Shown: one piece after another, positions 21,191 to 54,748 of the stretch
Position numbering within the stretch: the first letter of the stretch is position 1
How the letters are laid out: each line of letters opens with the position of its first letter
From: Vermamoeba vermiformis
Taxonomy: Eukaryota
NCBI GenBank assembly: GCA_045837725.1
Contig: JBEWZL010000272.1
Coordinates: forward strand, 248,001 to 312,000
Reading direction: 5' to 3'
Length of the DNA: 64,000 nucleotides
The notes under the pieces: model-generated
The model's database searches: none
The model's input: the letters and a program-made list of their open reading frames with translations, nothing else
Told to the model about the DNA's origin: nothing
Program-made: the position numbers and the translations under genes

Positions 21191-24100
21191 ATGGAGAACA
21201 CGGCAGACATTGGTTCTTGGCCCACTGAGGTCCTTTTCTCATTTTTTAGATCGTTGGACCCGCTCTCATTACGTAAGAAAGGGATCAACCCTTCCCGCTC
21301 AATTTCAAATCTGCCTTATCAATAATTCATTTGCTCAAACGCATAGAGCCATCACCTTATTTACGGAATGAATATTTTAAATAATATTGTAATTTTGTAG
21401 ACCAGTTCAGCGGAGTTTGTAAACGATGGAGCCAGATGAGCCTAGATAACGAGCTCTGGCGCCAATTCTGCGCTGAACGGTGGCAAAATATTCCAAAGGA
21501 ATCGGATTGTGTAAAGAATTGGCTAATACCCGTGCGTGAAGGAGGTAACCATAACCTTGATCGAGCTCAAATTCTTCGTATTAATCCAGTTAAATAGTTG
21601 GCAATAAGGAAAATAGAATTGATTGGCGTAAAGTATATTTAATAAGGTAATATTAAACAGAGCCTATTGGTAGAGTTAATTTAATTAATCCAATTTTTTT
21701 GATCTGCGTAGAGATTTGGCCGATTCTGCTACACTTGCTATGGTTAGAACAATGCCTAAGCCCTCTAAAAAGAAAGGCAGACAAGTTAAAGGAGCTCGTC
21801 AATCAGCTACAAAAGATTTTTTTGAGAAGGGTTGGATCGAGCTTAAAGATCTCCCAGCCTTAGAAGAATTCTTTGCAAAAAATACTAGAAATATCAGCGA
21901 GCCAGAAGATTATCTAGACGAAATGCTGCAAATAATGAATTTTCACTTGGAGTTTGAGTTATTGATGCTGAAGCAAGTCAACATTTCTCGTATGAAGCAT
22001 CTGGGCGTTGCAGCAAAATTCTTAGAAGATCTTGCTGATTTTCTTAAATCATTACATGATTATGCACCATATCGGTACGTAACGGTTCGTTGATCCACAA
22101 TTAAAATTTTTAATATTTTTTTTTGTCGATCCAGATTCATCGCAGTGTTAAATCAATACTTCGATCTTGCCGTGCAAAAAGAAGTACCCCTTGAAACAGC
22201 TGCAAAGTTAGTTGCTGCAATGACTAGCGTTATGAGTGCAATTGCAGGGGATTACGAAGGCAATATGACTGATCTACTCGAGGAGCTTAAAGACTTTTTT
22301 ATGCTTATTGTCCGATTTATCAACGAATATCCTTACGGAGATGCCTATGTAAGTTCAATACTGCAATATTTCATCTTACGAGTGTATTTTTAACGCGGAT
22401 CTGACCTTCAGAATCAATGGATCAGCACTGATTTTGCAGAAGACGAAACATCGCCGACGCATGAATTCGAAGAAAGCCTTAATGTGCTAGCCGTTACTAT
22501 GAGTAAGTTAAAGTGACTTTAAGTCTTAAAAACTCAATGCTGGATCTACGAAGTCCGAGATCGTAAAAAAAAAAATTATTAATTTTATTTTGCAGAGGAC
22601 ATTGACAGGGTCGATGAACTTTGGCAGGTCATGATAGAAAGTTTAAGCAAACTTAATCCAAGCACATCGTTACGAGCGTTCAATACTGTCTTAGCCATCA
22701 ATGGAGCTGTTACCGAAAGCGTCAAAGAACCTGTGCTTGCAAATTTGGATCAATTTGCCGCCACGTAAGTCATTTTCGGTGAAATTCCGCTACTGAGGTC
22801 TAAAAAATTTCCTTTTTAGGTATGTGCTTCCGTTCTTCCGGGTCGACCAATCAACTCCGATTGAAAAACTCGTTCCGATTAATTATTACTTCGCAACAAC
22901 GTTCTCGAACTTAGGCGTAAGTATAATATAAATTTGATATATTGGGCAAATTAATATTAATTTTGTCGGTAGTCTGCAATGCAAGTTAAATTTATGCATC
23001 AATTGATGCCGGGAATCATTACAATGGCTAGCGTTAATCACCCAAGGCAAGTATAAGACTTATTAATATTTCGTATTACTAATTAAATTGCTATAGAGTT
23101 CAATATCATGTCGGTCAAGTACTCTTAGGCTTTTGCGAACATTTAGTGGACGGCGAAGAAGGGTTTGGACAGTACTTGCCAGAATTGCTGAACAAATTGT
23201 ACGCGACTGTTATGACTTCTACGAACCAACTAGCACGAGAAAAAACGATTTTTGCTATTAGTTCTATTGTCATCACTTGCCGTAATAATTTTGCTGAGGT
23301 AATGCTGGATCCACATCTGGTTCGGATCTAAAACTCAAATTTATTAACGTTACTTAATTTAATGATAGGTCCGTGAAAGCGTGATGACAACCTTCAAGAA
23401 TTTGCTGGCTATAGGCAACAAGAAAGATCGTGAAGCCGTTATTGAAGCGTTAAGTCGAATTGGCGCTGGTGTTGGAGACCAGAAAGAGAGCATTGCCGGT
23501 GACGTGGAATCGCTTTACGCACAAGTTGTTGAAGATTTTAAGAACGACAGACCCGCCCACGAAGAGCTTTTGATAAAGTTGACGGAGTTTGGTGTCACTA
23601 CATTGGGCAAAAAGTTCAGCAAGTACCTCCCTCTCGTGTTCCCAGTCATTCATCAACACGCCGTTTCCGAAGTTCTTAATATCCCTGAAGGCCTTATGGG
23701 TGCTGGAGAACCTCTTCATGAAAATAATAACGATGCCGAGAATAACAATGAAGACGATGAAAATGACAACGAAGATAACGACGGCGAGAATGACGGTACA
23801 AAAAAATTATTATTTTTTCCAGGTAATTCTTAATTAATATTTCTTTTATACCAGATGAACCTGAGGACGAAATTGATTGGGATAATCCGAACTTATCAGT
23901 CGATGAAAAGCAAGTCTCATTGAAAACATCTTGCGTTGCTGCGTTAGGAAATTTAGTCGAAGATCTGGATCGCGCCGAGCTGTTGCCTTACTACGAGCAG
24001 ATCCACGAAGCACTTCGATTAAACGTAGGAGGTCAAGGCACTCTTGGTAAGTACTGTCATCTACTTGCCATTACATACAAACCTGACCTGTTTCTAAAAT

Positions 24101-25597
24101 TAGACTTGATCCTAATCGCCTCGGAAATTTACGTTTCGTTCGTCGCGAAATTTTTCCCGCATGGCATGGAGCCTGAATGGGTGCAAAAGATGAAGCCGTT
24201 CTTTATGGACATTACTGAAGCATTTCTTGGTGCCATTGAAACCGAAGAACTTGATTCTAAAGAACGAGTGTTGACTTCTTTTAATACGGTAAGTTATCGT
24301 GACAAATTATTAAATGACACGTGTCACTTTCCTGCATGACAGGTGTCATTTTTTTTAACGCAACCGTTCGTCAATGACTAAGGTCAGGTGCGGGGAAGAT
24401 ACAATCAAGACCGTCGTTATTAATCGTCTTATCAATCTTCTAGATGTTGGAAATTTTGATCAAAAATAGTCCTGCCAATCAACCGTTCGTGGACGAAGAT
24501 ATCACAAATGAGCTATTGCAAGCATGTCTCGCATGTATGGAACAACTTTACATGCTCCAAGACCTCGATATTGAAGATATTCATGACTACGGATACGAGG
24601 TAAAGGTTCAATAGCGGCATAATAATGTCCTAATGTTTATTCTTAGTGTGTTAATCTATTCGAGATTTGCGCTAAAAACACGGCGAACAAAAAAGAATTC
24701 ATTTTACGGACGGGAAATTTCCTCAGTTTCGTGATGAATCAGTGCACACAACAAGGTCCTAGTGTCAGTCGATGGGCTGATTTGTGCATTCTGACTACGA
24801 CCTTTGAATATTACGGGGAATATTTTGCTCAATACGGCATGGTAAGTGCTTATATGCAGTACGGCAGTTCGGACCGGATCCAAAAATTTTAACGATGTTA
24901 CTTTAGGGCGGTATTTTAGCCTTCTTATGGAGCTGCCGTAATGTCGATTCAAAGTATACTCAACAAGCAATCGCATATTATTTGTGTAAGTCACCACCAG
25001 AATGTCGGTCTTAAAACGTGACATTTTTGACACTTTGACACTTATAGCTGTCTATGCACGAAAGTACTCGAAAATGCTACCGCCTGACTTGCAGCGTAAG
25101 CTCATCATATTATATTACCATAAAAGGCAATTACTAAACTTACGAACAATTGCAGCAATTTTCGATTGGCTTAACACCCTGTTAATTGAAGAGTACCACC
25201 GCGACAGACCTTACGTCTACGACAATGCACTACGTATGCAATCGATAGTACTCGGCACCTATTATCTTACTAACTTATTATCAAAGTTGCATATGGCTAC
25301 TTAGTCGAGCGCACAACCCAAAAAGAGCTCTTCATGCAACGCATGCGAAACTACATTGCGTTGTTCCCGCCAACAGCAGATGGTGACACAGACGAAGGCA
25401 ACAAATGTTTGGAGACATTAGCGCGGTTATTGACTTCACCATTCGTCAGTGAATTGCTAGTAGGGGACAAAGACTTGATGGCACTGTTGCTCAAAAATGT
25501 GAAAGCGACACTAGCGCTCGGAGTCTACAACACTGAAATGAATCGCGGATTTTTAGATCCGATTATTGCGCTCCTCGAGGGCTATTTGGGCAAGTAA
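21191..25597 (+). CDS. F-box protein fused to importin-beta (importin-4/5-like) HEAT repeats
   Basis: F-box: WPTEVLFSFFRSLDPLSL/HQFSGVCKRWSQMSLDNELWRQFC. HEAT segments resembling importin-5/Pse1: HPRVQYHVGQVLLGFCE, QYLPELLNKL...LAREKTIFAISSI, TLGKKFSKYLPLVFPVI, an acidic loop, LKTSCVAALGNL. Confidence 0.75.
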
Positions 25598-25926
25598 TAA
25601 TAAACAACATATGTGATTCGTTGTCAAGTTACGATCTCCATTAGACGGCTGACCCAAAACCCTGAATAGCTTCCACCAGATATCGCACAAAGCTACTACA
25701 TTGAAAGCTTCCACGTCTTACTAACGCTTGACTTACCACATTGCACCGCCGTCCTTTCATTGGATCCAATTACGTTTCACAAAATTAAACTGCGGAGATT
25801 TCTACAGCGAGTAATACCAACAACAAAAAGAAATCAAGAAATAAAACAATCCATTTCATACAAAGTTAGCCACAACCAATCTCCCGACCGCAATTCTTTC
25901 TTCCTCAATTCCCGCAAAAGCAGCCA

Positions 25927-28490
25927 ATGTTCTTCGCTCATCACTTGGAACAAATCCAGCAGGCCAACAAAAATATTCAAAGCGCGCACAACAGTATATC
26001 GATTACGCCCATCATATTCATTAAACATGCCAAGGACGGCTGGAAAGTGAATGAAGAAGCGATCTCAATTCTTTCGAAAGTGAAGAAGCCCCTTAAAGTT
26101 CTTGCGGTTACACGTAAGGAAAATATAGTTGTCATGCAAAATCTAACCTCAATTAGAACGTTTCCACTCAGGATTCATCTCGCGTCATATTGCGAATAAA
26201 TTTTTGTCATTGCAAGGTGGATTTGATCTACAACACTACATAGTAAGTCCACTATTACGTTCAACACTATGCTAATTAATTAATTAAAGCGCTCAAGAGA
26301 TATTTGGATGTGGGGAAAAGATACGGGGAACGAGATCGAGCTAGTTCTTCATACGGAAGGATTCAACACAGATGACAACACTACTTTAGACGCTCAACTT
26401 CTTTCATTGGTTTTATTGCTTAGTTCACATGTTACGTTAAATATTCCCGTCATGCAATATAGACCAGCTGAGGTAACTGACCAAATAAGATTTCAAACGT
26501 ATTGCACTTAATTATAAATATTGATTTATGTCTCAAGATATGTCACAAAGTTGCCAAAGATCATTTTTGTTGAAGAAAGCAACGAAGATGAAGATGATGA
26601 AACTTTTTACAAAGAAATATTCCCACCTGTCATGTTTTTGGTGCAAGACTTTGCTGTTCCCTTAGAAGATGGGAAAACACTAGATGACTATTTAGCTGGA
26701 TTGTTAAAACAAAAACCTGGATTGTCCCAAGCTATTCGGGAGAGAAACAATATTCGAGATTGTATTTGTCAATATTTCTCAGAACTTGGTGCTATGGCTA
26801 TCCCACAGGTATAACCTGTACATATGAAAAAGTCAATAACTAAATTTGCTGTAGAGTGACCTCTTCTGTGAGAGAGCTGAAAGATTCCATGAAGCAGTTG
26901 ATGACACATGCTCTGTTCTTCATAAAAAATTGAAAACAAAGAAACTCAAATACATGAATGGCAGTGTTAGTATTGCTGATGGGGAAGGTTAGTCATCTCT
27001 TTATTCGTCCTGAATGTAGTGCATTAATCCATTCAACAGAGTATCTTGAATTGACCAAAGCCATAGTTGAATGTTTGAATGCAGAAGGAAAGATTGAAAT
27101 TCCAAAATTGGCCAGGGCTGTGCTGGGAAAGAAGCACATCAAACTCCTTGTGGATGAACCTCAAAAGAGTGGTTCCAACCATTCTTTTGCACAAGTTGAA
27201 GAGTTGGAAAAAATTATCAATGGCAGTAATTGGGATGAGCTAGCAAGGACTTTGCAACAGAATTGCAGCAAACAAGTGATCCCAGTTATATATCCCATCA
27301 ACCTCAGTTTGAGCACCAAGATGTATATTGACAACCTTGCCATCAATTCACTAAAAAGTTTGCTCCATGAAATTCATAAACAAAGATTGATATTAGAAGA
27401 GCAACTTGATGCTAACAATGTGACACTAGGAGCATTGCAGCATAGGGAAGATGAATTGATGCAACAACTCCTAGAGGTTCGAGCAAAGATTGAATTGGTA
27501 AAGAAGACAATTCAGAAGCAAACAAATAACCTAGGAGATAATGCTTATTTTGAAGATAATCTAAATGAAAATATTCAAAAATATCAAGAGACACTGAAGA
27601 AAAATGAGTTGGAGCTCAAAAAATGCCAAGAAACTTTTCAAACAGACATTTCAACCTGGACTATTGAAGATGTAGTGTTATTTTTGAAAGAGATTGATCT
27701 TGGGCAATATTTAGCTTCATTTATATCAAACAACATTGATGGCTCTGTGCTTCAACTACTTGAAACAAATGATTTGATCTCTGCTCTTGGGGTCTCATTC
27801 AAAGACACAAAGAAGTTATTAATGTACATTTACTTGATTCAAACCCATCAGGACATCTACACAATACCTCCAGGAGTGCTGCAATGGAACAATGAAACTT
27901 TGTGTACTTGGCTTGAAGATAACAAGTTTGGTCACTTAAGTACTGTCTTTAAGATGAATGAAGTAAGTGCTTACATGTTAGATATAAAGTATTAATTGTA
28001 ACTTTTGCAGATCACTGGAGCTGAGTTTGCTTTCTTGGAGAAATCTGATCTGATTGGTCAGCTGCAAATAAAAGCACTAAGTGACGTCATAAAACTCCAA
28101 AAAGAAATATTAAATCTCAAGAACTCAATTCAAAACGACAAGCAGCAAGCAGAAATCAAAAGAAGCAATAACAACAATTTATTGACCAGTCAACTTGAAC
28201 GTAAACTTGAGGAAGTAACAAGGTTCAACGAAGAGCTCAAAATAACTCTCAGGGAGCGAGGAGCAAAGGTACCAGAGGCATTTTTATGCCCTATTTCTCA
28301 GGATATAATGAACGACCCAGTAGTTGCCAGTGACGGCTTCACATACGAGAGGGATCAGATTGAAAAGTGGCTGAAGAACAATAACAGATCTCCTATGACT
28401 GGAGACCAATTATCGAGCAAGCAACTTACGCCATCGCACACGTTGAAGAGCATGATTCGAGAGTTCATTGACACAAACAAGAAGCAATAG
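25927..28490 (+). CDS. Degenerate guanylate-binding-protein (GBP)-like domain + coiled coil + 2 SAM + U-box E3 ligase
   Basis: GBP-like: VNEEAISILSKVKKPLKVLAV, DIWMWG, LHTEG, DAQLLSLVLLLSS, FPPVMFLVQDF, LDDYLAGLL...RDCICQYF. SAM: WTIEDVVLFL and WNNETLCTWL. U-box: PEAFLCPISQDIMNDPVVASDGFTYERDQIEKWL. The true start may lie further upstream. Confidence 0.85.
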
Positions 28491-28750
28491 TCAAAGGAAT
28501 TAAGAACAGCCAATCGTTGCTGTTGCAGCACTATAATTATTTCACTAGAATTAGTATCGAGTAATCAATCTAAATTACCTCTTAACGTTGACTACTCGTC
28601 AAATTTTGATAGTGGCTGTTTGCCGTTATTTCGCAACTCTTTGCTGAAGCATTCTATTTACATTTGCATCACATAAATAAGACGAAAGACATCGAAGTGC
28701 AGCGTCTATTTCTTTTCTCGTTCCTTCTACGACTTGTACTCGAAGTATTG

Positions 28751-34945: not shown

Positions 34946-37900
34946 ATGCTAGCACGAAATATTATACTCGCTTTGTGCTTTTCAGCAGTGCTTTTTACTT
35001 CAGGTTCGTATTACTAAGCTGAACGCGATCTGCCTCATACTTGGTACTAATTTGCTTTATATAGTATATGCCATTAGAGAACAAGTCGACTTGAGCATTA
35101 GCGCAGCTATGCCTAGTCAGCAATGCCAAGCTACAGCTTACCAACGACCTTGCATTAAATTTGACGGATCTGCGGTGCCCGACTATTACCCGCCTGATTA
35201 TCCTTGCCCTTGCCCCGCTCTTGGTGACAATAGCGGTTCTTTTATTGGCCGCGGCAAGGGTACCACGCCCAATGCTTACAGCGACGAATTTCAAGACGTA
35301 GTTCTTGCCGACGGCTTCGATCGCCCGGTCAATGTGGCTTTCACTAAGGACGGCAAGTTCTTCGTCAATACTAAGGCTGGACAAGTCTGGAAGGTCGATA
35401 GAGCCACTGGCCAAAGGACTTTGTGGATGGATATTACCGTAAGTGATATTAAAGCTTTACAAAAATTAAACTTTTCAAAGACTTTACACGCCAGATCTCC
35501 AACACTTCTACAGTTATTTTTCCGAACATCTGTTTAACTTATACACATAGTATTAATATATCATGATAGGACGAAGTAAACAGCTCTGGTGATCGTGGAC
35601 TTTTGGGCATCGCTCTCGATCCGGATTACCCTAACACCCCTGAGATTTACTTCTGGTACACTTACGGTCAAGCTGGTACGTGCAACAAGTCTGAGTATAC
35701 ACATAGAAACAATTTCCGTTTTTAAAAGTGATATATTGCGATGTACAATACGGAGACTAATTTTGTTTCGTTGCGGATGTAGCTGGCGAAGAAGACTATT
35801 CCGCTACAATGACTCGTCTTATTCGTGTTACCGAGAAGGACGGTGTTGGTGATAGAGCTAACTACTTCATTCTCTTGGGCCACACTCCTGCTGACTCCAT
35901 TCCTGTCTGCTACAACACTCATGCAATCGGATCCGTCAAGTTTGGTCATGATGGCTCTCTTATCGCTTCTATTGGTGAAGGCGCTCATTGGGACTTCCCT
36001 AATGGTACGTATAAAGTATTCAAAGTGCAACCCAATCGAGTTTTCTCATAGATTTTGCTGCGCTAACTACAAACACATCCGCAGCTGAAAATAAGTTAGA
36101 AATCAGCCCTTTTTCACTATTATATTGTCGTGTAGTATATTAGGATCAAATTGAACAAAAATTTACGCCTTTCTTTCATGAAAATTGAGTTTGTTTTCTA
36201 ACGTGGATTTTGCAGGTGACTACGGTCAAGATGTTATTGCTACTGATCCCTCATGCGGCCAAATGTTCGGTGCTGTTGAAGATATTGGTAGCTTCCGCAG
36301 TCAATCTCTTAAATCTGGTGGTGGCAAGATCTTGCGTCTCGATCCTCGTACTGGCCAGGGAATCTGCGCTGGCAACGATAAATTCGCCGTGCCTAACCCC
36401 TTCTGCGACGGCAACCTCGACTCTTGGGCATCTAAGATTTGGGCTCTCGGTGCTCGTCAACCTTTCCGTATGATGGTTCGTCCTGCTTTTCCTGGAGACC
36501 AAATCCAAGGTCCTGGTACAATCTACTTTGGTGACGTTGGCGAGGGTGGCTACGAAGAGGTTAACGCAGTTACTGCTCCTGGTCTTAACTTTGGCTGGCC
36601 CTGCTGGGAAGGTAAGTTCGAATCCATTTCAATTTTCAATCTTTACGATCGAGATCTCGATGCATGTTGCTAAGCATGAATTAAAATTAGGTCCCTTGCC
36701 TATGGTCAAGCATCGTGATAGTCCTCTCAACACTGACCCGACCACTAATGTCTACAAACAAGATCCTAACCTTTTGTGCCCCTACATCTACAACAACGTT
36801 ACTACTACCACGCCTTTCTTCTTCTATTCTCGTTATGGTCCTGGTGATAGTTACGCCAACGTGCACGACAACGCATACCTCGGCCAAGGTTTCATTGGCA
36901 ACACAGTCACCGGTCTTGCTTTCTACACTGGATCGCAATACCCCGCTGCTTATCAAAATGCGTTGTTCGTGCTTGACTACGGTCAAATGTGGATCAGAGC
37001 CCTCAAGGTCGACACTACTGGTGGCAGCGATATTTACCGAGGCGTTATGGACTTTATGGTTATTGGCAAGCCGATCACGACTTTGGAGATCGAGCCTGAA
37101 GAAGGCAACTTGGTCTATATTACCTTATTAGACGGTGCTATTCGTATGATCAAGTACGTTGGTGTCAACAACCCTCCTGTTGCCCAAGTCAGCGCTTTCC
37201 CTTCATCCGGTGTTGCTCCTTTGACCGTCCAATTTACCTCCGACGGATCCATCGACAAATTAGGCAATAACGTCACTGCTCTCTGGGACTTCGGAGATGG
37301 CTCCGAGACTTCTCGCGAGTTCAACCCCGTTCACGTCTACCAAACTCCTGGTGTCTTCACCGCTGCCTTTTCCATCACCAACAGCAAGGGCATTACGACT
37401 TCTACGACCATCACTATCAACACTCAATATGCTGCCCCTGTAGTCAAGATCACCTCTCCGACCACCAACAACCAATTATGGCACTACGATGTCGGTCAAA
37501 CTGTCAATTTTGCCGCGACAGTTGAATCTACCGCTGCCCCAGCACAACTGCAGTACGTGTGGTCTGCAACACTCGCGCACGAAAATCACTTCCATCCTGA
37601 CGCGTACACGACCACTGCTCCTACTTTTTCAGCTGTTCTCAGCGACGTTGGTAGTGAAGTTCCTTCTCGAGAAGTCCGTGTCAATATGTTCGTCACATTG
37701 GCTGTCACTGACGTCAGATCTGGTCTCGTGGGCTACGACTCAATCTTCGTGGCTGAAACTCCGGGCGATTGGTTCGCAAACACACCTCCAAACCCTGCCT
37801 TCAGCATCACTTCTGGTGACCCTGTTCCCAACAAGCCGATCCAATTCGACGCTACTGGTACTTCGGATCACGAGTACGACTCGATTTTCTATACTTGGGA

Positions 37901-38282
37901 CTTTGGTGATGGTTTGCCTCCTGTTCGTTGGGGCATTGACGAAGGTTTCTTCAACCCCTTGTTCATCACGCACACCTACAATCAGACTGGCCTCTACACC
38001 GTTACTTTGACTACCACTGACAACTACTTGACAAGCAAGTCTATCTCCAAGGTGATTGGTATTGGTGTTGCTTCTCCTAGTGGACCGACTTCGCCTCAAA
38101 CTCCCGCATCCAACACTCCTCAAGTTCCAACCACTCCCATCAGCGATGGTGGAAACTCTCCTTCAGTCATACAAACTCCTATTAGCGATATTCAGCACAA
38201 TGGCCCTCAAGGCTCATCTGGTGCTACCCAAATTACAATCAACGCAATTTTGGCGATCTTGTCTATCGCTCTGCTTTTGTAA
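34946..38282 (+). CDS. Secreted, probably GPI-anchored glucose/sorbosone dehydrogenase-like (GSDH, PQQ-type) beta-propeller with PKD domains
   Basis: Signal peptide MLARNIILALCFSAVLFTSVYA. GSDH motifs: GDRGLLGIALDPDY, HAIGSVKFGHDGSLIASIGEG, GGKILRLDP, WALGARQPFR, YFGDVG..GYEEVN, NFGWPCWEG. Two PKD domains (WDFGDG). Ser/Pro/Thr stalk and hydrophobic C-terminus. Confidence 0.88.
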
Positions 38283-38475: not shown

Positions 38476-40081
38476 TTATTGGTTATTATTATTATTATAG
38501 AGGAAATCAGTAGCGGCATGATAGCTCTGCAATGCATTTGCTGAATGATTGACGTACTTATATTCTTCTTGGCGTGGGATATCGGGGAAATCAATAGGCT
38601 CTATATGAACGAATAGTATCTCTTGGCTTAAGCCTGCTAGAATATAGGCTTGAATCTAATTATAAGATTGTTTAGCGAACGGCGATCTGGATGTACCGAA
38701 AAATCTAACGATTGTATTAATGATGATGCTCAGCGTACCTTATGGTGTCCATCGATCAAGAAGCAAACATTATCCATTTTAACTGTTAATACAGCTGGTC
38801 GAGCGTCTTGCTTGATCTGTTCTACGTAATAATCGACTCGGCTTTGATTTAATAAATCTGATGGTTGCGTAAAGTAAACTTGCAAGTGATCTGCATAGTT
38901 GTCTATACATCGATTAAAAGTTAAAACAGATCTGGTCAAACAAAAAAGTATAATTGAACCTACTTTCGACTTGATTCAAATCCGTTGAGGAAGTATAGTC
39001 GAATGTGCTTATCATATACTCTTCCCTTTCAACGGTAATTCTATAGGTGCCGCTCTGCATGCACTTCAAGAATGGCGTTAATTTTTCTGCCAGGACGCTT
39101 AGATCCAGAACTGGAGCATTCAAGTACGACTCTACGAAACGAGTAAATAACAAAATTTGTAAAAAAAAGTATCAAAATGCGTACCAACAGTTTGGGTAAT
39201 ATGACTGATTTCTTGTTTTGTCAGAATTTTGGATCGTACTAGACATCTGAAAACCGAACCAGCATTATCGTTAAACGATGCAACAATTGGCTACAAACAG
39301 GTTAAATCGTGTATTACATACGACTATACGTACTTTTCCATTAAGTTTAAGGCCTTGAATATTTCCTGACTCGAGTTCTAACAACCCTTCGCCGTCAACG
39401 ACATCCACTTGTTCGCCATAGCAGTTAGGTCTTCGTTTTAAGTACTTAGAGTATTCCAATCTCTTTAGGGATGCAAAATACGGAGCGGAAGAGTTGGAGT
39501 CTACTTCTGAAGACCAGATTCGATCTGAAGTTAGCTCTTTCAACCAAGATTTCGAAACAGTCGCTACTGAACTCGCTTCTTCGATAGTCAATCGCTTAAA
39601 TATCATATACATAAGAACCTCTTTTGGTATTATCGATAATTTGCCCAAGTCCGATTGAATATCAGATTGACGGATGCGTTGTGACACTTTCAGATCCTGT
39701 GCAATATTATTAAAGCGATCAGAAAAAATATAGAATAATAATATATATAATATATATATTACAGACTATTCCCTATTAATATCTATATTGCCTGTTACTT
39801 ACGTCGGGTAAGAATTGATAGTTTGCCAATGTTTCTAAAACACTTTGGCCCGTTTCGATTTTATATTCCCTAAGCTTTTCAATGCTAGTTCCAGGTAATT
39901 TTTTCTTAAGAAATGCTCGCAAAAGAGTTTCTTTTTCGACCGTCAGAGGATCTCCCTAATAAAGTTAGATTCGTTTAATCTAAATCACCTTTTTGTTATT
40001 ACTTACAAATCGGAGGTCCATGAATTTTGCTGTAATTGCTTCGTTCAGTTCTGACACTATTTCTTTGTACAAAGCCTCCAT
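38476..40081 (-). CDS. F-box protein with C-terminal ParB/sulfiredoxin-like domain
   Basis: F-box: LSIIPKEVLMYMIFKRLTIEEASSVATVSKSWLKELTSDRIW. C-terminus: TQPSDLLNQSRVDYYVEQIKQDARPAVLTV...FLIDGHHK/IQAY. First exon MEALYKE at 40081. Confidence 0.72.
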
Positions 40082-40387: not shown

Positions 40388-41682
40388 TCATTGAATTAAT
40401 ACAGCTACAATACAATATAACAAGATGCTAATTAGATTCGTATCCAATTTTATAGCACTGTTCACCGCAGTTCTTGCGCTAGGAGTTGACTTTACAGGCT
40501 CGCTGTTTGTGATTGGCCCATTCATCGGAACATCTCCGATAGGTACGTGATCAACATTTGGTTCCGAGATTGGAACGAGATTTGTTGGATGTGCTGCCGG
40601 TACGTGAACTGGAGTTGTTATTGGTTCGCTGATAGGCGTTACTGGAGGTACTATAATCTCTACAGGCACCTTTTCAATGCCTTTTATAACAAAATCTGGT
40701 CGCGTAACGAGCGTTGAAATTGCGCTGAATTGAGATCCGTCGTCTATTGTTTTGTAGATCGTCTTATCCAACGCAAATAGTACTGTCGTAGTGTTATCGC
40801 CGTTATCATAGAAAATTTGACTAGAGATAATATTATTGTTCGCATTCTCAGCAATGTTGTAAAGTTTGGTCCAAGATCCAGCCACAAATTTTAACTTGTA
40901 CAAAGTGTACGGGGATTCTTGCGATAAGTACGCGTATTTTTCTCCATTTTGTTCGAAGAATTTGATTGTGTCTGGAAACATGGTAATTTCTGAGCCCCAG
41001 ATCTGATTAATGTTCTGATTCGTTGTATTTACAGGAAGACCGGATCCGACTTGAGCCAAACCAAAGCCATTATCGTTGTAGTTCGTAACTAAGAGATTGC
41101 CTTCGTAAATATACACGTCTTGAATTTTCTGAACAGTGCCCAGCTCTATCCGGTCGTTTTGAGATCCACCAAACGGGATGTAGCTGATTGTGTAATCGCC
41201 AGCAATGTAAATATCGTCGCCGTCCTTGATAGATCGATACCAATATTTACCAGAAGGCATTTTAAACTGCGTAGACGTGTCTAAGTCTCCATTTTGGTTC
41301 AAGACTCCTACGGCGGATGTGAGTTGGTTGATGTCGGTTGTGACGCCATTTGGAATGTAACATGCAAAAGTTACATATTGACCGTCAGTAGACAAACGAG
41401 GTGCGCCTTGATACACATTCGAATTCGTTGAGCACGAGCTTGAAATCTCGATAGTTTGAACGGATGTGCCATCTGGCGTCAGTTCTTCGATAAATGTTGG
41501 GTAAATATCGGTGCTTGCGAGGTCTATACAGCAAAATTAGCACATATAAGCAGTTAAATATTATTCTTACCGTCATAACTTTCGTTTACATACGATATAA
41601 TAAAATTGCCTGGCGTAAACGGTGCTGCATTGATCGAAGCAAAAATTAACGCTACGAAGAAAATATAGGCTATAGGTGACAT
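40388..41682 (-). CDS. Secreted, probably GPI-anchored beta-propeller-like surface protein
   Basis: Signal peptide MSPIAYIFFVALIFASINA; APFTPGNFII...FIEELTPDGTSVQTI...LSTDGQYVTFACY; Pro/Thr stalk; hydrophobic C-terminal tail; one intron. Confidence 0.75.
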
Positions 41683-42211: not shown

Positions 42212-44316
42212 TTATAACTTACCAGAAAAAGGTCTATATATATGGGTAGGTATCTTATCTCGTTCCTCACGTCTATTCAATACTTTATCAACTCTTCCAA
42301 CGGCAATCGGTCGATGATTTTCCGCTAATAATACTTTGCCATCGTAATTCTTTTGAAATTCCGAAGCTTTGAACGGTTGTATGCATATTCGAGCATAAGG
42401 CCACATTATTCCGCTAAAAACTTTCAATTGTTTTGCGTCTTTTTTGTTTTGGTACTTTTTTTGCGGGAAGATCCAGATCAGTCTGCATTGAAATTTTAAC
42501 CCGGCGTAATATAGCTTATATGACCTCATCTCATTTAACATTGAGCTATCTAATACCACGAATTTGCATCGAAATGCAATGGTGTACGGTAGGTGCTTGA
42601 AATTATCGTGGATTATGGTCTCTTTGTTCGGATTGAATTTTTTTCTGAAGTGCCAATCACCGATGTCCTTTAATGTCAAGCCTATATAATCGCCTGCGAT
42701 AAGAAAATGATTAAAGCGGGATCCAAGGAAAAGAAAAAATTCTGGAACCACCCAACAACAATTACGAGCATTGTCTCGAATCAATTCATAGGTATTATTA
42801 ATAATGAAATATTAATAATGAAAAATTTGCTAGTTTGATAAAATTGATAAAATTGATAAAAAAAGATCGTACCTGCAACAGCGTGGTCCGTACTATTGTG
42901 CAGTATTTCGATTCTCTCAACAGTTGAATGTAGCGTATGGTGACTAAGAAATACTTTATCGTTGACTCGAACGTTGCCCGCTGTTACGATAAAAAAAATA
43001 AAAGTCAGCAGATCCGGATCTGAATTTTTTTTCGTTCGTAATTCAAAATATGCAAAAATCGTGAGTATAACGCATATGTTCTTATTAAATACCGATAGTG
43101 GTAATAAAGCACTTACACATGACTCGTCCGATATAAACGAATGAAGTATTTGCGACAGCTGGCCGTAATTTGTCGTAAAGATGAATCTGCAATTTTTCTT
43201 TTCTTAATTTTTCCACGAAATTCTCATCGTAATTTGTTCGATTTTGACTGGCACGCAACAACGTTAACAAACTATCGCCGTTGAACCAACCAAACTTTGC
43301 ACTTGTTCGCGTCAAGTTCGTGCCACGAATTGCATCCACGGGAATAATCTCGAAACAAGGTCCAATTGCCTTATTTAGTATTTCCGATAAGTAATTCCGC
43401 TTCTCGTAGAAAACTGAAAAAAATTCAAACCGTTAGATCCGGACCCAAAAAAATCGATATGAAGATACCGCTTAATTTCCAAATATGGTAAAAATGGTTA
43501 AAGCCGACGGCTATTACCTTTTTCAGCAGTTTTTGAAGTCGAATCTAAATTAATAGCAATAATAACGTCTCTTGAACTCATCATGTGACAGATCCCAACG
43601 ATTTTGTTAACATCGATGTTATCTTCAAACTTTTCATATGCACCATATACTAATACACATAAATCGGCCTATAATAAAGTCAATATCAATTTTAATGTGC
43701 CACATCCGCAACTTACCTGAAACGCGCGAACGAGGTACTCATGATGCCCTTCAAATAGGGTTATGGTCTGTGGTTTATTGCGCATTGAAAGCGTTGTATT
43801 TTTTATAATTAATTTTCTTTGGTATTTAGGCAATATTCGAGTCGGTTCTTCAGGTGGAGTTAACGCCATCCGAAACAAATTTTTCATGCACGAAGTAACG
43901 CCTACAAAAAATCAAAAATTAATAAAATAATTAATATAAATTAAGCAGTATTTAATTGAATTGACTTACCAGCCAGCGGACCTAATCCGCAAAAAAGTGC
44001 GTTCAAATGATCATCTACAAGCCGAATCTTTCGTTTATGTTCGAGAAGGTACTGGCAAACGTCTCGAAGTGATTTATTGGCTCGTGCAGCATATGCTAGT
44101 GATGTTCGTGATAAGTTGTAACAAATTGCGAACAAGATCTACGAAGGTCTTTAGAAAACAAAAATAAAATTTAAATTCAATAAATTCCAACGTGATAAAA
44201 AATGCAATATAATTGTTAAAAATAGTGTAGAAATAAATAATTAAGACCAGAATAATTTATAGCTCAATTTAACGTACGTCTGATGGCAAATCTGACAACA
44301 GCAACGTAGATTCCAT
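42212..44316 (-). CDS. F-box protein fused to a degenerate eEF1A/HBS1/eRF3-like translational GTPase
   Basis: F-box: LSDLPSD/ILFAICYNLSRTSLAYAARANKSLRDVC. eEF1A-collinear segments: HLNALFCGLGPLAGVTS, TITLFEGHHEYL, ADLCVLV...EKFE, VIIAINLD, IIPVDAIRGTNL...WFNGDSLL, AGDYIGLTLKDI, ICIQPF...GKVLLAENHRPIAVGRVDKV. Confidence 0.75.
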
Positions 44317-44584: not shown

Positions 44585-46603
44585 TTACTGCAACGAATTC
44601 TCTTGGCCTTGAAATACTTGTTGTTTATAATATTGCGGCAATTCTTGCAATTCTTCTAGCGGTATCTCTTGAAAACTATTGTCTTTAATTTGTCCTTCAG
44701 ATCCGATCTCCGCACCCACGATCGGTGATTGGATAGCCAAATTTTGTAACTGTGACTCAATATGTGTAATGTGTTGATTGGCGTGCAGTGCGTGGTCGTG
44801 TGACTCGGTCCGTGTCGGAATTCGGTGGATTAAGCCGTAGCCCACATCACAGCCCAGCCTAGTAAAAAAACATTGATTAATTAAGAATATAGCACTTAAG
44901 AATGATCGATAATAAATAAATAAATATTATTATTTACGAATTTTTCAAATTTCTTTGTAATTAGCTAAAGGTGCGTTGGATCTGGTTCTAACAAACTAAA
45001 TTTCAAAACTCGACTTAATAATTCATAATTAAATTAGCTATCAGTAGTATATAACAATAAGATACTATTATTATATGACTCTTAAAGTTCCCTATTACTT
45101 ACACTCCATTTCCGCCCCAGTTCTCGCTGGGCACTAAGGTGACGAGTCTGACTGAGTCGGTCAACGAGGAATATATGTACAGTTGCAGTGGCTTGTCGAG
45201 GTGACTCTATTGGATAGTAATAATAAGGACATATTAGTATAGATTTTCACCCGATTTAAACAAATTTAAATTTGCAAAAATGAAGAAAAACGGATCTGCA
45301 TCCGGATCTTGTTAAATTTTGTTTTGAAGCAATAATTCGATTATATAACATTAATATTATATATATTATTTGTTATTGACGAGGCTAACGTACCTTGAGT
45401 AAGTTATGAAAATCAGTTTCGCTGTTGAACACGACTTCAGGACTGCCCACAATGTAATCAGTATGGGCCTCTAGTCCTGCCTGTGCTGCTGGTGACCCTT
45501 CTGGCACTTCCTAAACAGGAAATATTGCCATCGATCAGCAAACGGAACTTTGTGGCACGTGCGCACGCGACATTTCAACGACTTACCAGTACGTGCCACA
45601 CATTCTCCATGACTTTGCTGTAATCGCAGAACCTCACGCTGATGCCTATAAAAGGAAATAGTAAGAAATATTTGCAAAGTATACGTTTGAAGCTCGGTTA
45701 TTGAACCGGAGTTGGATGTACTTACCACCCAGTCCAAGACCACCCCACGAATCACTAGGCGTTAGTTGAGTATCTAATATATAATGATATATTAATTTAA
45801 TACTAAATATATATTTATAATGCTGCAAATAAAATTTTTTTAAGTGTTACGTACCTCGTATTGACTCGGTCTTAGAGTTGTATACTTTAAGTTCTATTGG
45901 CTTGCCTAAATTCGATTGTAATATCGTGGCAAATCTATTGTCTTCTTTATCCTATATTTTAATACCATTAACTCATTTGTCTTCAGTAAAGTAAGATCCA
46001 ACAACAGATTTGCCTCGTGCACATCCAAAATTTTCGTTTATATCGCGATTTGCATGAAACTTACTAATGGAGTTCCATTCGCTGATAATATAAAATCGAA
46101 AAATGGAGTGAGTCCTGCTTGTTCTCCTGGTGAGTTTGGCGAGACCTTGCGAAAAAACAATTAGATCGAGCTCTAACTCGCGCAAAAACATTTTAATTTA
46201 TTATAATAAAGAAATGTTTTGTATTTGCTAGGATTATGAATATGTTATACGGTCAGTTGTATTATTGCAAAATAATTGAAGGAAATTTAGAGTTTGTGTT
46301 CTGCGGATGTAGTCATACAAATTAATTTCAGCGCAAAAATACCATTACTAATAAATATAAATCCTGTAATTACGGTGATGGAATTTTGGCTCGTTCAAAA
46401 AAACAGAAAATTTTCAAAAATTGATAAAAGTGAATCTAACGCATTCTTACAGCGTACTTTATTCGTGTAAATAATAAAAATAATAAATTTATTTTTTTGC
46501 ATTATTGTCGAGTTCATGAACTGAATCCCTACTTGCGGGAATATAAGATCTGACTTACTTGGAGTACGTGATATCCAAGTTGCGCTGAATCTGTATTTCC
46601 CAT
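44585..46603 (-). CDS. GORASP: Golgi reassembly-stacking protein (GRASP55/65, GrpA)
   Basis: Spliced: [39 protein letters not shown]...LKVYNSK...WGGLGLGGISVRFC...[27 protein letters not shown]...WGGNGVLGCDVGYGLIHRIP. Two PDZ-like GRASP repeats and Gly2 for myristoylation. Confidence 0.95.
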
Positions 46604-47875: not shown

Positions 47876-48810
47876 TATGAGTATATTAATATGCAAGTAG
47901 AGTTTGGTAGTCAGGTATGTTGCTTTACTAACTAAATTTGTTGGATGAATGAAATAGCGAAAAGCTGACCTTTTTATTATTTTTTCAGCTATTCTTTCGG
48001 AATATGGTACCACGTGAGCTACAAACACGCTATTGGTTGTTTCTATTCTGGGTAGGATTGAGAATGTGAGCCATAGTCAAGTTGCGGCGGATGCACAAAG
48101 AAATGCGGTCCCCGTGCTGAAATTCTGAATCGGCGGAGTTTGTAACCCAAGAATGATTCAAGATAATGCCTACGAATATCCAAGGTTATAATATCAAGCG
48201 GGGCCTATCCGTAAGTTTAGTATTTCTCGATTTAAAAATTTCGAAACCTGCAACAAAATTCATTTTCTACGGATAAATATTTGGGCAAATGAGATCGATA
48301 TTAAATTCTATTTTAAGGTATTTATTCCAGTCTAAGGATTTAAATAACAAGCCATAATCCTTATCGATGAATTTTACGATTCAGATCGAAAATGAATCAC
48401 TAATTCTTATCGAAGCGTGAATTTGCTTAAAGGCTATTATACTAACCCTAAGAATATAGAAAGCGAGCCTAACACGGCTAGGAAATGCGACAAAGAATGA
48501 AACCGTCCGCCGGAATAATAATACTTATCAACACGCCCCGAAAAATGACACGGCGTGACAATTCTTTTCTTTGTGGTTCCAGCGCGTAATTATTACCGAG
48601 ATATAGTAAGGATACGATATATTAACTTAGTTCTAAGTAGGTTTATCGTTGCGGCCTAAAGCTAAATATAGGTATGGTTTCAATATTTTGGGATCGACAT
48701 CCAGAACACGCAATCGACGGGATATCAATTCTGCATTACTTAATTTCTATTTATAATCACTATTTACAATTCTTTGTTATTCAATATCTTATAATATTAC
48801 AACTAATTTG

Positions 48811-50904
48811 TTAAACTTCAGACAAGGCTTGACCGCTTCTCGGACTAGCAATAGTGCCAGAATCGGTACCTGATTTCTTACCGGTCGTAGAACTTTGGCT
48901 ACCTTTAATAGCACGCGGGTTGAAGACGAGAATTTGACACATTGACACGCCGACGAAGGACAGCTCGCCCATAAAGTTGATTGCGAGCCAGCCAGGGACA
49001 CTGCCAGAGACTTCAGGGAACAAAAATATGACCACAGATACGACGCAGATCCAAAAACAAATGACGCTGCCTATGATGAGCCACGTTGTCTAAATAAGGA
49101 AAGTAAGTAAAGGACTGAAATTTCTCACATTTTGGTGACCGCTCTTTGACTCGAAAAATATAGCATATTATAGTTCCTGAGGCCTGCTTACTAATTTTAG
49201 ACTCTTAGTTCGTTTGTTGACGGCTTGGCTGTTTTTCATACGTCGTAAAAGCACGATGGACACGATCATGTAGAAGATGGACATGGCCAGAATTACAATG
49301 CAATAGACTACTGCTGTAATCTCGAAGGTGACACCGGCGCCAGCTATAAAAGGAAATTAACTTAAGTAAGTTTGGTCATAAGCTAAGCTAGAAATATCTT
49401 CGCTAACTTACCAACTTCAGTGGATCTGAGAATACCACACGTGATCTCAAGAGCACCGAGAACGACACTAAAGATGATAAATGGCTTCTTCATATTCTTA
49501 AGACCAGGATATACAGTCAACGAAGCGCTAGTCATCGCTTCAACCCTACGAGAATGGGCGATCAGATCCGGATTCTAAGAAGGTCTGAAACTTACCAATA
49601 GAGACTCATCAACAATGAAGCTACAATAGTGAAAGGAAATGATATCGTAAACATGATATTATCCGCGTAGTAAGTAATAAGATGACGTATTCCAAGCGGA
49701 TCGACGGTCATGTACACGAGTCGAACTGCAAAAAAAAGTTAGAAATTGAATTAATATTGCGTCATATTAATTAATGTTGTTCGTAGTATAGGGTGCATAT
49801 ATATTATGAAGGGTATAGAACTTACTCAAGTTGGCAACCAGATGCAGCGTCAAACAGGTCTGTGGAATGCCTTCTAATGTAGCCTTGCCTCGTGCTTTTG
49901 AAAATAATACTATTTTATAAATAGCAAAGCCCACGCAGAAGGCAGCGCCGAGTCCAACGACAACAGAAAAGGCCACATCAATGTCTGTAGAGCAGATTCG
50001 AATGTGAGTTAGAAATTTTATTCCTAAAATTAATTATATAGGTGTAAATATACTTACGCTGATCATAAATAACGAGCCAATAATTTCCTATTATGGAATA
50101 TTTTAGTACAAATCAAAAGGAAATTTCTGAAACCGAAAATCAACTATAATTTAGATCTGAGCCTGTGTTACCTGTAGATTCGATCGAAACAAGTACATAT
50201 GGCTGATCAGCTGTATATATTGTTGACAGCATTTCAGTGGGCACCGATCCGATTTCAAAAGCCGGGATGTGGATTCCTTGTCCTTTTGAACCGTCTGTTT
50301 CTAGAAAACTACGGCCAGGGTGCACTACGCAATATAGTAATTAATTATGCCATATATTTAAAAAATATACCGCAATTTTAATTAAACTTGTTAATTAAAC
50401 AAGAGGTGACACGCAGATGTCAAACGCCGCGGATGTCAGAATTGAGTTTTTTAATTTCGAAATTTAATTCTAGACTTACGAATGCTATCTTGTGCTAATA
50501 TAACCACTAGCGCGCCTTTTTGTTGCAATTTTCTGATGGTGGGCTCGATCGGGTTGACTGTTGGGGTTACAACGACTAGTCCCGTTATATTTACATTGTC
50601 GGTCACTTCTGGGATATATACAGATGTGTAATTAACAATAGGCTCGGCTAAAGACCCTGTATCTAAAATAATAAAAACATTAGTGTGGGAAATGATTTGG
50701 ATCTTACGCGTTTTCAATTTTAATTAATCTGACAAGTTTAATATACTAGTACTTACATTCAATAAGTAACTGCGCGACTTCAAAAGTCAATTCGCCGTCG
50801 CTTGTATAGAAAGTTATGTCGGAGTACGCTCCGTTGACTGTAAGCAGCAGTATCAAAATGAGGCTTAATCGCCTATAAGTTAGACTAATTAGAGCCTCGT
50901 ACAT
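48811..50904 (-). CDS. Seven-TM receptor-like protein with extracellular PA-like domain
   Basis: Signal peptide; PA-like IRKLQQKGALVVILA...IPAFEI; about seven hydrophobic segments across exons (e.g. IRLVYMTVDPLG, SFPFTIVASLLMSLYW); Ser/Thr-rich tail. Confidence 0.7.
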
Positions 50905-51703
50905 GCTGCTGTGGTATTTGATACTGAAGAAATAAGTTCTAATTATTTGTTATTTTCGCGCACGAAATCTTTGGAACCATTGCGAGGCTTTTTCATGCCA
51001 TAGCAATAATTTCGTCCAAGTATAGAAGTCTATATGCATCTTCGGCGATTATACTATGAGTTATAATGGCAAAAATGTTATAATACGGCCTTTCAATCAT
51101 AACATTTCAAGGTCATGACATTTACAGAGATTATTGTTCGTCCCAATCTCTTCAAATTACAAAAAATCTTAATTAAATACATTTGAAGTAGTAATTATCA
51201 TGTCTACGACTGTATATATCGATTTCAGGCCGTACTTATGGCGACATCCGGAAATTGACTCGGTTTTAAAACAGCTCTAAAAATATTTGAGTACGCAATT
51301 ATGACCTTGGAATGCAAGTATAATAAACTCTACATATTCAGTCCGGTTCATTTTATCCATCGCCGCGTTCAATCATTTAAAATGATTGCAACGCTCGTAA
51401 ACTGACTCACAATGTTACGGAAACAAAATCACATGTCAGTCCCGTCGTTCCTAAACTTTGTTAGCGGATAGTTCGCATTACAAATGCACTGGGTACCAAT
51501 CATCAACTACTTCCGCGGAAAGTAAGCCGATGATTGAAGAGGATCCGCACCGCGATCTGTAATCCTCTGTAATGACAATTATCTATCATAACGCCGTACT
51601 TATGTACTAGCTAGACTTGGCTAGTTGAGCAAAAAGCTTTGGCACTGCTAGTAAATCCGGATTTGCTTTTCAAATTGAACATTGTTTTGTAACTCTAATT
51701 TTC

Positions 51704-54700
51704 ATGGCCAACCTGAATACAATAATAACCGTACCAGCAGCTCAAACTGCTTTATTTAGTGCTTTATTTAGCAGGAATGCAGTAACTAATGCGTTTGATG
51801 GTCTGAAGAGCCTCAGAAGCACATCCAAAGAACTTTATCAAATTTTAAACGACGAATTTATTGTTAAATTATTTAGCAATAAAGCATTCGGTAAGAAGTA
51901 CGCATGATATTAATATCATGCTTTTTCTCGATAGTCTTTATTTATTTGACAGGATCTAACATCTGTATTTTCACAGCTGCATTGAACGCTCGATTTCAGC
52001 ATCTAAAAATTAATTATTTGATTATTAATAATTATTGGAGCAATTTTGAAGCGTGTAAGTCCCACTAATCGATAGTTAATGTTGCTAACAAATCAGCAGT
52101 TATTGAGCTGGTAGCAAGGCATAATGGAGCATATAGATGTAGAGAAATGGTCAAAAAACACTTGCTTTATGCAGTCAAGGTCGGATCCACAGACTTCGTT
52201 GCAAAGTTGTTGGCGATCAGAATCCAAAACAGCACTGTACAATTTCCAGCAAAAAATTTAATACGAGCATTTGAATATGCTTTAAATGCTAAGAAGAACG
52301 ATACCGCTATTACGTTACTATCTTTCTTACAACCGCGTTTGAATGAATCCGATCCCGAACACTTTTCAGTAAGTCATTTATTTGGCCTTTAAATATTACA
52401 ATTACTTATATATATGATAGAAACTAGAAAATGCGTTAAGAAACAACGAAGAATTCAATTTAAATGGCGATGTATTTTATCAAATTAAGAAGTTAAATTC
52501 CTCGCGAATTTTATTGGAGCTACTGACCGGTAAATTATTATAAAATACCAATAATTCGTATTCATGAATAATAATATACGTTTCATTCAGCTCCGAAGAA
52601 GAAGATCGTTATTCCTGAAGGTAGAACGAATGACGGATCATGTTCTTCTTTTAAATTCAGCGAACTAACGATTAAAATACAGGCGATTTATATACTTGCT
52701 TAAAAATTCCGGAGAATAGGACTTCCATTTACTTTGCCGAAATTTGGGGTAAGCCTTAACCAAACGAAATTAAGCCTAACGCTCATCTTTACTCTACTAG
52801 GCCACTCATATTACCAGTTTAATAAGTTACGCTATTATTCAAGTGCTCTTATGTGGTTAATTGGCACTGAATTTAAAAACTCATATAATATTTCTTATTA
52901 CGACAACAAAGCGATCAAACACGAATTTGAAATTCCGAAACAGAACGGAGTTTATACTTACGAAGGCATATCTACTTCAAACCTATACGAACTGATAGTC
53001 AAAACGAGTATGGGCTCTGAATTTCTAAGAACTTTTCCGCATCAGTTTGTAGCGGTTACAGATCAAGCCTTGGAACAGCCTCTTGAAGACCAACCTTGGT
53101 ATTTTGGCAATATTACAAATGAAGAAGCTCGAGAGATATTAATAGGTACGTAACTAACTGTTCAGTTCAAAACTGTTGTGATCCAGATCCAACGCGAGAG
53201 TCATTTTTGGCACATCTTTTGGACTTTTCCTAGTGCTTATTATAACTAATTATGATTGGTTTTTTATTAGGGGCGGCAAGCAACTCTTTTTTCTTAACTC
53301 TATCCCGTGGTTTGCAGTTTTTTGTTTGCTGGAGCGAACCGAAAAGAAGCAGTCAAACCCAATTCTTATCGTTGCCGTTCAATGGCTGCCAAGAACTGAA
53401 GAAATTAATCGAGAAGGCTATGGATAAATTCAGTTGTGTTCTGGGATTTTATAACGGTGGTTCACCTAAGAACATTGAAGTATTAAAATTTCATCGGATC
53501 CTTGCCGAATCTGATCCCGATCTTGGTATGAAAAGCCAATATGATCATTCAAAGGAATTCTAACATCTATTCTAGAGCACGCTAAGCATTGGGTTATTGA
53601 AAACAGTACGTCGGGCGTCTCACAATGTCAAATATTCATCGATTTTTTCTCAGAAATTCAAATTCCGCTGCAAGACCCTTCTCCTCTTTGGACCTATCTA
53701 CACAGTAGAAAAATAGAGGATGCAAGTTCAGATGGCGTACTAAAATGGTTAATAGGTGAAGGTGTCCGTTTGGACGGAAGGTAAGATCGATCTTTGATCG
53801 GATCGGATCGGATCTGACCACCTTTCTTTTTTCAGTGAGACTCCTTCGATAATGGCTCTGAGTATAAAAAAGGCAGGAGTTGAATATGCGAAGCATCTGT
53901 TAAGCCTTGGAGTTAAATGTGATACCTCAGCGTTGTTAGAATTGGTTGCAGCAATACCGCATCGTGACGAATTCAAAATATTCTGGGAAGCACGAAAAAG
54001 CGACATAGATTTATCGGAAATACTCGACAAATTGTTAGCACACGCTGAATTGTATAATTCTCGATGGGGCAATGGCGAGAAACGAAAGTTATTGATGTTA
54101 GCTTGGAAGTTCGGAAATGACGACAATTTATTTAAATTATTGCCGAAAGAAATATTGCAATTGATATTTCAATACGATATTGATGTACCCCATTGGTACA
54201 CCATCGGAGAAATTATTCTAGCAGAAACTCCACAAAGAAAAGTTGTTGCGACTTTGGTGTCAATAGACAGCATGCTATTTATTGCCAAATATAGAAATTT
54301 GTTTTATGAAAAAGTCATAACAGATTCCTTGTCTCGATTATGCGGCCTGCCGAATTATTTCCAAGACAAAAAACTACCACAGCTGTTCGGAAAGCTACGA
54401 CAGATGGATCCTAGTATGGTCTTTGCATACAAGCCTTACGCATTTCCTGGCATAGTAAGATATTGCACTTCGTCGACGGATGTGGATCTGTTGTCCGCGA
54501 TTTTGGAAACAAAAATAATCGATACGCAATATTTCTTGGAACAAAATCCAGTGCCGATGACCTGGCTGGCATGTAAAGAAAAAAACAAACCAGCCATTGA
54601 GGTGCTTACCAAGTACGGCTTGATCCCGCTCGACTTCAATTTTCTACATTATACACCACCAACGCTGCGGGAATGGCTGATAAGCCATCAAGTACATGAT

Positions 54701-54748
54701 ATTTATGAATACGTTGTGCAGTGCATTGAAAAGAATAAAAAGTTGTAG
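51704..54748 (+). CDS. Ankyrin-repeat protein with degenerate SH2-like domain and F-box-like motifs (one gene joining several ORFs)
   Basis: ANK-like: LLYAVKVGSTDFVAKLL, ETPSIMAL...AKHLLSLG, MTWLACKEKNKPAIEVLTKYG. SH2-like: QPWYFGNITNEEAREILIGAASNSFFLTLS. F-box-like: LFKLLPKEILQLIFQY. Introns ~53527-53575 and ~53781-53835 join the ORFs in frame. Confidence 0.6.

Follow-up and report, generated by a model that had tools for sequence, protein, structure and literature searches.

Substrate receptors of the F-box and U-box classes usually bind their targets through repeats such as WD40, LRR, Kelch or ARM. In nematodes the F-box and MATH-BTB families are expanded and have been proposed to target foreign proteins, the vertebrate protein RNF112 (neurolastin) joins a RING finger to a GBP-type GTPase, and the eEF1A paralogs Hbs1, eRF3 and Ski7 serve as adaptors. 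In Dictyostelium, FbxB combines an F-box with ankyrin repeats and an SH2 domain, and is given without a known function in the passages of PMC2906285 that deal with it. Here we analysed five genes (g1 to g5) of the amoeba Vermamoeba vermiformis, which lie within about 34 kb of a 64,000-nucleotide stretch (positions 248,001 to 312,000 of contig JBEWZL010000272.1, assembly GCA_045837725.1; hereafter the window). A preliminary description of this DNA had presented all five as fusions of an E3 ubiquitin ligase module (F-box or U-box) with a diverged copy of an unrelated conserved protein. E3 modules were found in g1, in g2 and in the relatives of g4, that of g3 is borderline, and none was detected in g5. 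The partner domains of all five are similar to those named in that description, with support that differs widely from gene to gene. Judged from sequence, we regard the fusions as real for g2, g4 and g5 and as likely for g1 and g3. We propose, with moderate confidence, that the five genes may encode ordinary substrate receptors of the Skp1-cullin-F-box (SCF, a cullin-RING ligase) and U-box types, in which a catalytically dead, anciently duplicated housekeeping paralog would act as the target binder.

Gene models were built with our own dynamic-programming exon chainer, and the splice signals of the window, seen in 95 training introns, are a GTAAGT-like donor and a T-rich acceptor with a terminal YAG. 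Domain evidence was taken from single exons or from database relatives (labelled P0001, P0007 and so on) rather than from whole spliced proteins. The Pfam search covered 150 of the 155 stop-to-stop open reading frames (ORFs) of at least 60 amino acids between positions 20000 and 56000, and three of the remaining five were added later. Because about 300 ORFs were scanned by Pfam overall, E-values close to 1e-3 are borderline.

The F-box and pseudo-eEF1A gene and its relatives

The strongest of the five cases is g4. The end of its F-box and a degenerate P-loop strand share exon 2, and thus the fusion at this point is independent of any intron call. Taken one by one, the g4 exons gave weak Pfam matches, F-box_4 at E 0.016 and GTP_EFTU_D2 at E 0.009–0.25. 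With the 98-residue exon 43118–43411, 6 of the 10 PDB matches (E up to 10) were of the EF1A family, namely Hbs1 (E 0.013), archaeal EF1A (0.021), CysN (0.11) and three further EF1A structures; PDB searches with g4 ORFs that still contained intron sequence gave no useful match, and a word-index homologue search with g4 found none. By eye, FEGHH stands at the DxPGH position and NLDS at the NKxD position, and there is no GK[ST]. The spliced g4 model matched two relatives in blastp, P0032 (E 7.6e-51) and P0007 (E 3.3e-48), and is collinear with both from the F-box through the C-terminal tail, at 30.8% and 29.5% identity, respectively. The predicted fusion of F-box and pseudo-eEF1A in g4, which the preliminary description had put forward, is confirmed through these relatives.

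P0007 is the ORF of a Trinity transcript (618 amino acids) that carries the EukProt label Vermamoeba vermiformis, and P0032 (611 amino acids, JGI) is the second full-length member of the family; all other members are fragments. Both full-length relatives, which share 55.5% identity, have the F-box and pseudo-eEF1A architecture. In P0007 the F-box scored above the cut-offs of both Pfam profiles (PF00646 and PF12937, E 3e-5; 24.1 bits against 20.5 and 25.6 against 24.3), as did GTP_EFTU_D2 (E 1e-8, 35.7 bits against 30.3), and EF1A structures accounted for 13 of the 15 PDB matches, the best at E 1.7e-25. The AlphaFold model of P0007 (pLDDT 56) retrieved translational GTPases for all of its top Foldseek matches (best 2.4e-12), with TM-scores of just 0.25–0.36. 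At the EF1A-aligned positions P0007 has RPPNK for DxPGH (G3) and VDLHC for NKxD (G4). Moreover, its alignment to EF1A starts only at EF1A residue 83, so that the segment from P-loop to switch I has no detectable counterpart. By these alignments P0007 is homologous to EF1A over three domains, and g4 and its relatives lack the G1, G3 and G4 motifs. This fits the earlier claim that the eEF1A, GBP and SH2 copies have each lost key residues, which PDB alignments and motif inspection bore out for all three. Like Hbs1, eRF3 and Ski7, of which Hbs1 is the best PDB match of one g4 exon, these proteins reuse the three-domain fold of translational GTPases outside elongation; they differ in having an N-terminal F-box and no G1, G3 or G4 motif, and P0007 is nearest to EF1A proper rather than to Hbs1 or eRF3.

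An exhaustive HMMER search with the 156-residue g4 exon 42224–42691 against 1.84 billion representatives yielded 18 proteins at E<=1e-3, 11 of them at E<=1e-10; P0017, among these 18, is a bacterial Cna_B protein that is unrelated to the family. Pfam on the 18 also found GTP_EFTU_D2 in P0012 and weak GTP-eEF1A_C in P0003 and P0011. Conservation is seen in domain III and in a C-terminal tail, where an alignment of 15 rows has 3 invariant and 15 nearly invariant columns, and it speaks for a binding surface under selection. Two different members, P0010 and P0019, lie on one metagenome contig of 608,359 bases, and hence the family is multicopy within one genome. It is conserved in the transcriptome of at least one named amoeba and in a number of environmental sequences. 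NCBI files a further member, P0018, under Brasilonema sp., a cyanobacterium, but its contig of 2954 bases is most likely amoebal DNA. A scan of viral sequences with P0007 gave no match, and metagenome scans with a g3 exon or, as a synteny test, with P0028 gave no nucleotide orthologues. The family appears to be undescribed: no literature combining ‘F-box’ and ‘pseudoGTPase’ was found, and the main text of the V. vermiformis genome paper mentions neither F-box nor elongation factor.

The preliminary description had suggested that the five genes are integrated decoys, i.e. that the dead copies mimic attacked host proteins, capture effectors of pathogens or giant viruses and send them to the proteasome. 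As in the integrated decoys of plant NLRs and in the nematode F-box and MATH-BTB families, a host-protein-like domain would sit inside a surveillance or degradation scaffold; the output of g1–g5, however, would be an E3 ligase and not an NLR, and their copies are remote from the parents. It is in favour of decoys that the parents (eEF1A, the Ran/importin system and GBPs) are effector targets, that the divergent, multicopy g4 family is confined to its lineage, and that several such genes stand together along with a BTB-Kelch adaptor gene; but g4 exons reach EF1A-family structures only at E ~0.01, whereas plant integrated decoys remain close to their real target. Moreover, the N-terminal stretch of the G domain that has no counterpart in P0007 differs in length among family members, and it is this P-loop to switch-I segment that we take to be the site of the residue modified by eEF1A-glucosylating effectors. 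Given how far the copies stand from their parents, and given that this segment lacks a counterpart, a fixed binding scaffold fits better than a mimic, and we consider decoys quite improbable. If they were nevertheless real, plant integrated decoys would have a counterpart that acts by degradation, with the multicopy F-box and pseudo-eEF1A family as the clearest member. The same description had allowed that the baits capture client proteins instead, which is close to the reading that we favour.

The GBP-like, SH2-like, importin-like and ParB-like genes

For g2, described earlier as a pseudo-GBP with a U-box, Pfam found GBP (PF02263) at E 9.6e-8 (31.9–34.5 bits against 21.1; just profile positions 127–215 of 264 covered) and a U-box (PF04564) at E 1.4e-22 (80 bits against 21.4; profile positions 1–72 of 73). 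It also found SAM_1 in two stretches (E 6e-13), domains that were absent from the preliminary description. The second SAM crosses the intron 27963–28010 (by eye), and thus the U-box exon is tied to the rest of the gene; the predicted fusion of GBP-like, SAM and U-box parts is solid by Pfam. A word-index homologue search with g2 found none, and a PDB search with its second ORF gave no useful match.

An intact GBP has a P-loop as G1, DxxG as G3 and RD as G4. The two best PDB matches of g2 exon 1 are GBP5 (E 0.26–0.37), in alignments that end at the residue before the P-loop, and by eye HTEG stands at the G3 position and LVQD at the G4 position. The 186 bases (26114–26299) up to the next exon lack GK[ST] in all frames. 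Over 26114–26196 (plus strand) the predicted first intron is open in frame for about 28 codons, and this read-through resembles, by eye, a ruined GBP P-loop with the helix that follows it, which points to a decayed exon or to an exon 1 that extends beyond the model. Because the gap has no GK[ST] and the read-through resembles a ruined P-loop, there is no nucleotide site under either reading. RNF112 resembles g2 in that an E2-recruiting finger is joined to a G domain of the GBP/atlastin type; g2 differs in its C-terminal U-box, its two SAM domains and its G domain without a P-loop, and the two fusions probably arose independently.

For g5, claimed as an F-box-like protein with ankyrin repeats and a degenerate SH2 domain, the SH2 part scores near the cut-off and the F-box was not detected. 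Pfam matched SH2 (PF00017) at E 7e-4 (20.1 bits; cut-off 21). A word-index search with g5 found one cluster, in which P0001, an uninterrupted ORF of 813 amino acids from another source, shows 46% identity to the last exon of g5 (E 1e-77) and in tblastn is collinear with the whole locus over its residues 1–809. SYK SH2 domains made up 6 of the 9 PDB matches of P0001 (best E 1.4e-3), although Pfam found no SH2 in it at E<=1. We take the phosphotyrosine-binding arginines of SH2 to be alphaA2 and betaB5. Aligned with SYK, P0001 has E for the arginine of ISREE and L for that of FLIR, and g5 itself has N and L at the two positions (by eye). An arginine-to-leucine replacement is also known from Dictyostelium STATb, which has leucine at a conserved arginine position according to the section of PMC2906285 concerned. 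Ankyrin repeats were weak (Ank_2 in P0001, E 0.004). No F-box was found by Pfam in P0001 (E<=1) or in the g5 exons (E<=5), and when the termini of g5 were compared by hhalign with an F-box profile made from five sequences, the probabilities were 0.3% and 6.8%. The AlphaFold model of P0001 is poor (mean pLDDT 45.2). Compared by architecture description only, g5 and P0001 are like FbxB in combining helical, ankyrin-like repeats with an SH2-like segment, an architecture known from an amoebozoan; they differ in that no F-box was detected, in that both phosphotyrosine arginines are replaced and, maybe, in having two tandem SH2-like segments.

The F-box of g1 was found above the cut-off, in the second of its half-exons (F-box-like, E 1e-5, 25.6 bits against 24.3), and the importin-5-like HEAT part claimed with it is more weakly marked. 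Three consecutive exons agree on an Importin-5/Kap123 type, each weakly: the first has Kap123 as its top PDB match (E 0.073), the next has human Importin-5 as the top 3 of its 8 PDB matches (E 0.0074, Importin-5 residues 553–629), and the following one has atlas neighbours with Importin_rep_6 and TPR_IMB1 (scores 0.95–0.96; recognition just under the mark of the tool). IBN_N, the Ran-binding N-terminus, was absent at E<=5 from the g1 exons after the F-box in an exon-level search, which is insensitive. The join of F-box and HEAT depends on a single predicted intron, 21545–21713. For g3, the F-box is below the cut-off (F-box-like, E 4.6e-4, 20.3 bits against 24.3), and the ParB/Srx identity that had been proposed is weak, comprising one motif and faint leads (atlas ParB_N 0.89 and DUF6551 0.90; a ParB-like PHROG at E 0.17–0.29); no ParB/Srx match was found by Pfam at E<=5, and no PDB match for the g3 exon.

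A rival explanation holds that gene modelling created some of the fusions and that, where F-box genes abound in the genome, the cluster is fortuitous, a caveat already raised in the preliminary description. Under this explanation g1 would be an F-box-only gene (21191–21597) followed by a separate HEAT gene from an ATG near 21742, and g3 would be split likewise. Our first model pass did begin the HEAT gene at 21752, and an unspliced reading from g1 exon 2 hits a stop at 21597; but just about 145 bases would part the two genes, and g3 has no in-frame ATG before its conserved-looking coding exons. Moreover, the uninterrupted ORFs of relatives back the fusions in g4 and g5, as does, for g2, the intron that by eye lies inside a SAM domain. 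Hence we judge this explanation rather unlikely.

The locus and its other genes

The features of the five genes are collected in Table 1. The window is intron-rich and amoeba-like, with frequent short GT..AG introns and a GC content of 0.34–0.48 in 2-kb steps, and an ORF scan found no long ORFs of bacterial type in it. An integrated giant-virus segment was considered and rejected, given the many spliceosomal introns and a local GC content (0.35–0.41) in line with that of the rest of the window. A recent tandem duplication was rejected as well, since the F-box of g4 is nearer to those of P0007 and P0032 than to those of g1 or g3 (alignment, by eye). The five genes are neighbours in the genome yet are not recent copies of each other. 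About 13 gene models occupy 21–55 kb, of which three or four have an F-box and one a U-box. By our arithmetic, three or more such genes among 13 would arise with a probability of about 2e-3 if E3-adaptor genes made up 2% of all genes, and of about 2e-5 at 0.4%, a share derived from the 54 F-box-like proteins of Dictyostelium and a D. discoideum total of about 12,500 genes; both values precede any correction for the many windows scanned. With such genes at a few percent of the gene total, chance alone would be expected to produce a window of this kind.

Another cullin-type substrate adaptor is encoded elsewhere in the window, by a BTB-BTB-Kelch gene at 11221–14507 (minus strand; BTB at E 1e-16 and 9e-10). 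Just upstream of g1 lies a tyrosine-kinase-like protein kinase gene (19677–20830, minus; PK_Tyr_Ser-Thr, E 5.6e-20). A large gene at 35109–38282 (plus; GC 0.48) has a part like glucose/sorbosone dehydrogenase and two PKD domains, and its product is probably secreted. Between g3 and g4, a gene at 40388–41680 (minus) has an N-terminus like a signal peptide and no Pfam match, and directly upstream of g4 is a GRASP55/65-like gene (44585–46191, minus) with a weak PDZ-like match (E 0.0026). Farther away we found exons of the gene for the glycosylphosphatidylinositol transamidase subunit Gpi16 (83–1747, plus), a LIM-domain exon (8018–8227, minus), an ankyrin-repeat exon (57739–58164, minus) and an exon resembling seven-transmembrane proteins of the cyclic AMP receptor/secretin type (62388–62747, plus).

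Table 1. Predicted genes g1–g5 and their parts, in window coordinates.
Feature	Position	Strand	Remarks
g1: F-box + importin-5/Kap123-like HEAT	21191-25597	+	~1050 amino acids, ~15 exons
g1 F-box	21191-21272 + 21401-21544	+	intron-split; first half (exon 1) by eye
g1 HEAT body	21714-25597	+	acidic insert ~23700-23880
g2: GBP-like pseudo-GTPase + helical/coiled-coil + two SAM + U-box	25927-28490	+	~718 amino acids, 6 exons
g2 U-box	~28269-28481	+	Pfam
g3: F-box-like + C-terminal domain with ParB/Srx-like DGHHK motif	40081-38476	-	~400 amino acids
g3 F-box	~39511-39633	-	Pfam, below cut-off
g3 C-terminal domain with DGHHK motif	38476-39131	-	motif by eye
g4: F-box + pseudo-eEF1A	44316-42001	-	~514 amino acids, 8 exons
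g4 F-box, then degenerate P-loop strand	44316-44278 + 44138-43970	-	exons 1 and 2
g4 G-domain remnant	43901-43518	-	
g4 G-domain end + domain II	43413-42873	-	
g4 domains II/III	42693-42223	-	
g4 conserved C-terminal tail	42122-42001	-	
g5: helical/ANK-like repeats + one or two degenerate SH2-like segments	51704-54748	+	~800 amino acids
g5 SH2-like segment(s)	52821-53525	+	one or two, degenerate
g5 putative F-box-like N-terminus and LPKEIL motif			motif in last exon

Possible roles of the fused copies

If the five proteins are substrate receptors, the established behaviour of both E3 families suggests that the F-box would dock on Skp1-Cul1-Rbx1 and that the U-box would recruit an E2. The dead paralog would retain the fold of its parent and probably some of its binding surfaces, while nucleotide cycling (in the eEF1A-like and GBP-like copies) and phosphotyrosine reading (in the SH2-like copy) would be lost, so that the cellular clients it holds for ubiquitylation would be a fixed set. 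For g4 such clients may be partners of eEF1A, e.g. its exchange factor, charged tRNA or the ribosomal stalk. For g2 they may be self-assembling or membrane-bound targets, reached via the SAM domains. For g1 they may be basic import cargo, bound without Ran control because the Ran-binding N-terminus was undetected.

Several observations weigh against substrate receptors as a common explanation. The F-box of g5 is undetected and that of g3 is below the cut-off, and the fusions in g1 and g3 depend on predicted introns alone. Furthermore, few proteins make up the g4 family (18 at E<=1e-3, including the unrelated one), which is multicopy (the two members on the 608-kb contig) and fast-evolving (30% identity between g4 and P0007); these traits would also fit a family driven by conflict, although we give this low odds. 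A different possibility is that the partner domain does the work, and that the F-box or U-box governs only the turnover or location of the protein itself or forms a Skp1 complex other than SCF; none of these proteins would then be a substrate receptor. Dictyostelium has 54 predicted F-box-like proteins, and the portion of the Skp1-interactome paper that treats them reports many with domains not of the receptor type, consistent with self-turnover F-boxes, and for some of them the box may serve own turnover alone (PMC9485057). The lost catalytic motifs, however, make an independent enzymatic job unlikely for the copies described here, while scaffolding would be possible; on balance we think it unlikely that the boxes act in this way.

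A substrate receptor built on a dead eEF1A scaffold would be, as far as literature searches show, undescribed. The gene set is small and its domain boundaries are clear. Such a receptor may offer a handle on how pseudoenzymes become binding modules, and on whether protists counter intracellular parasites by means of degradation-based traps.

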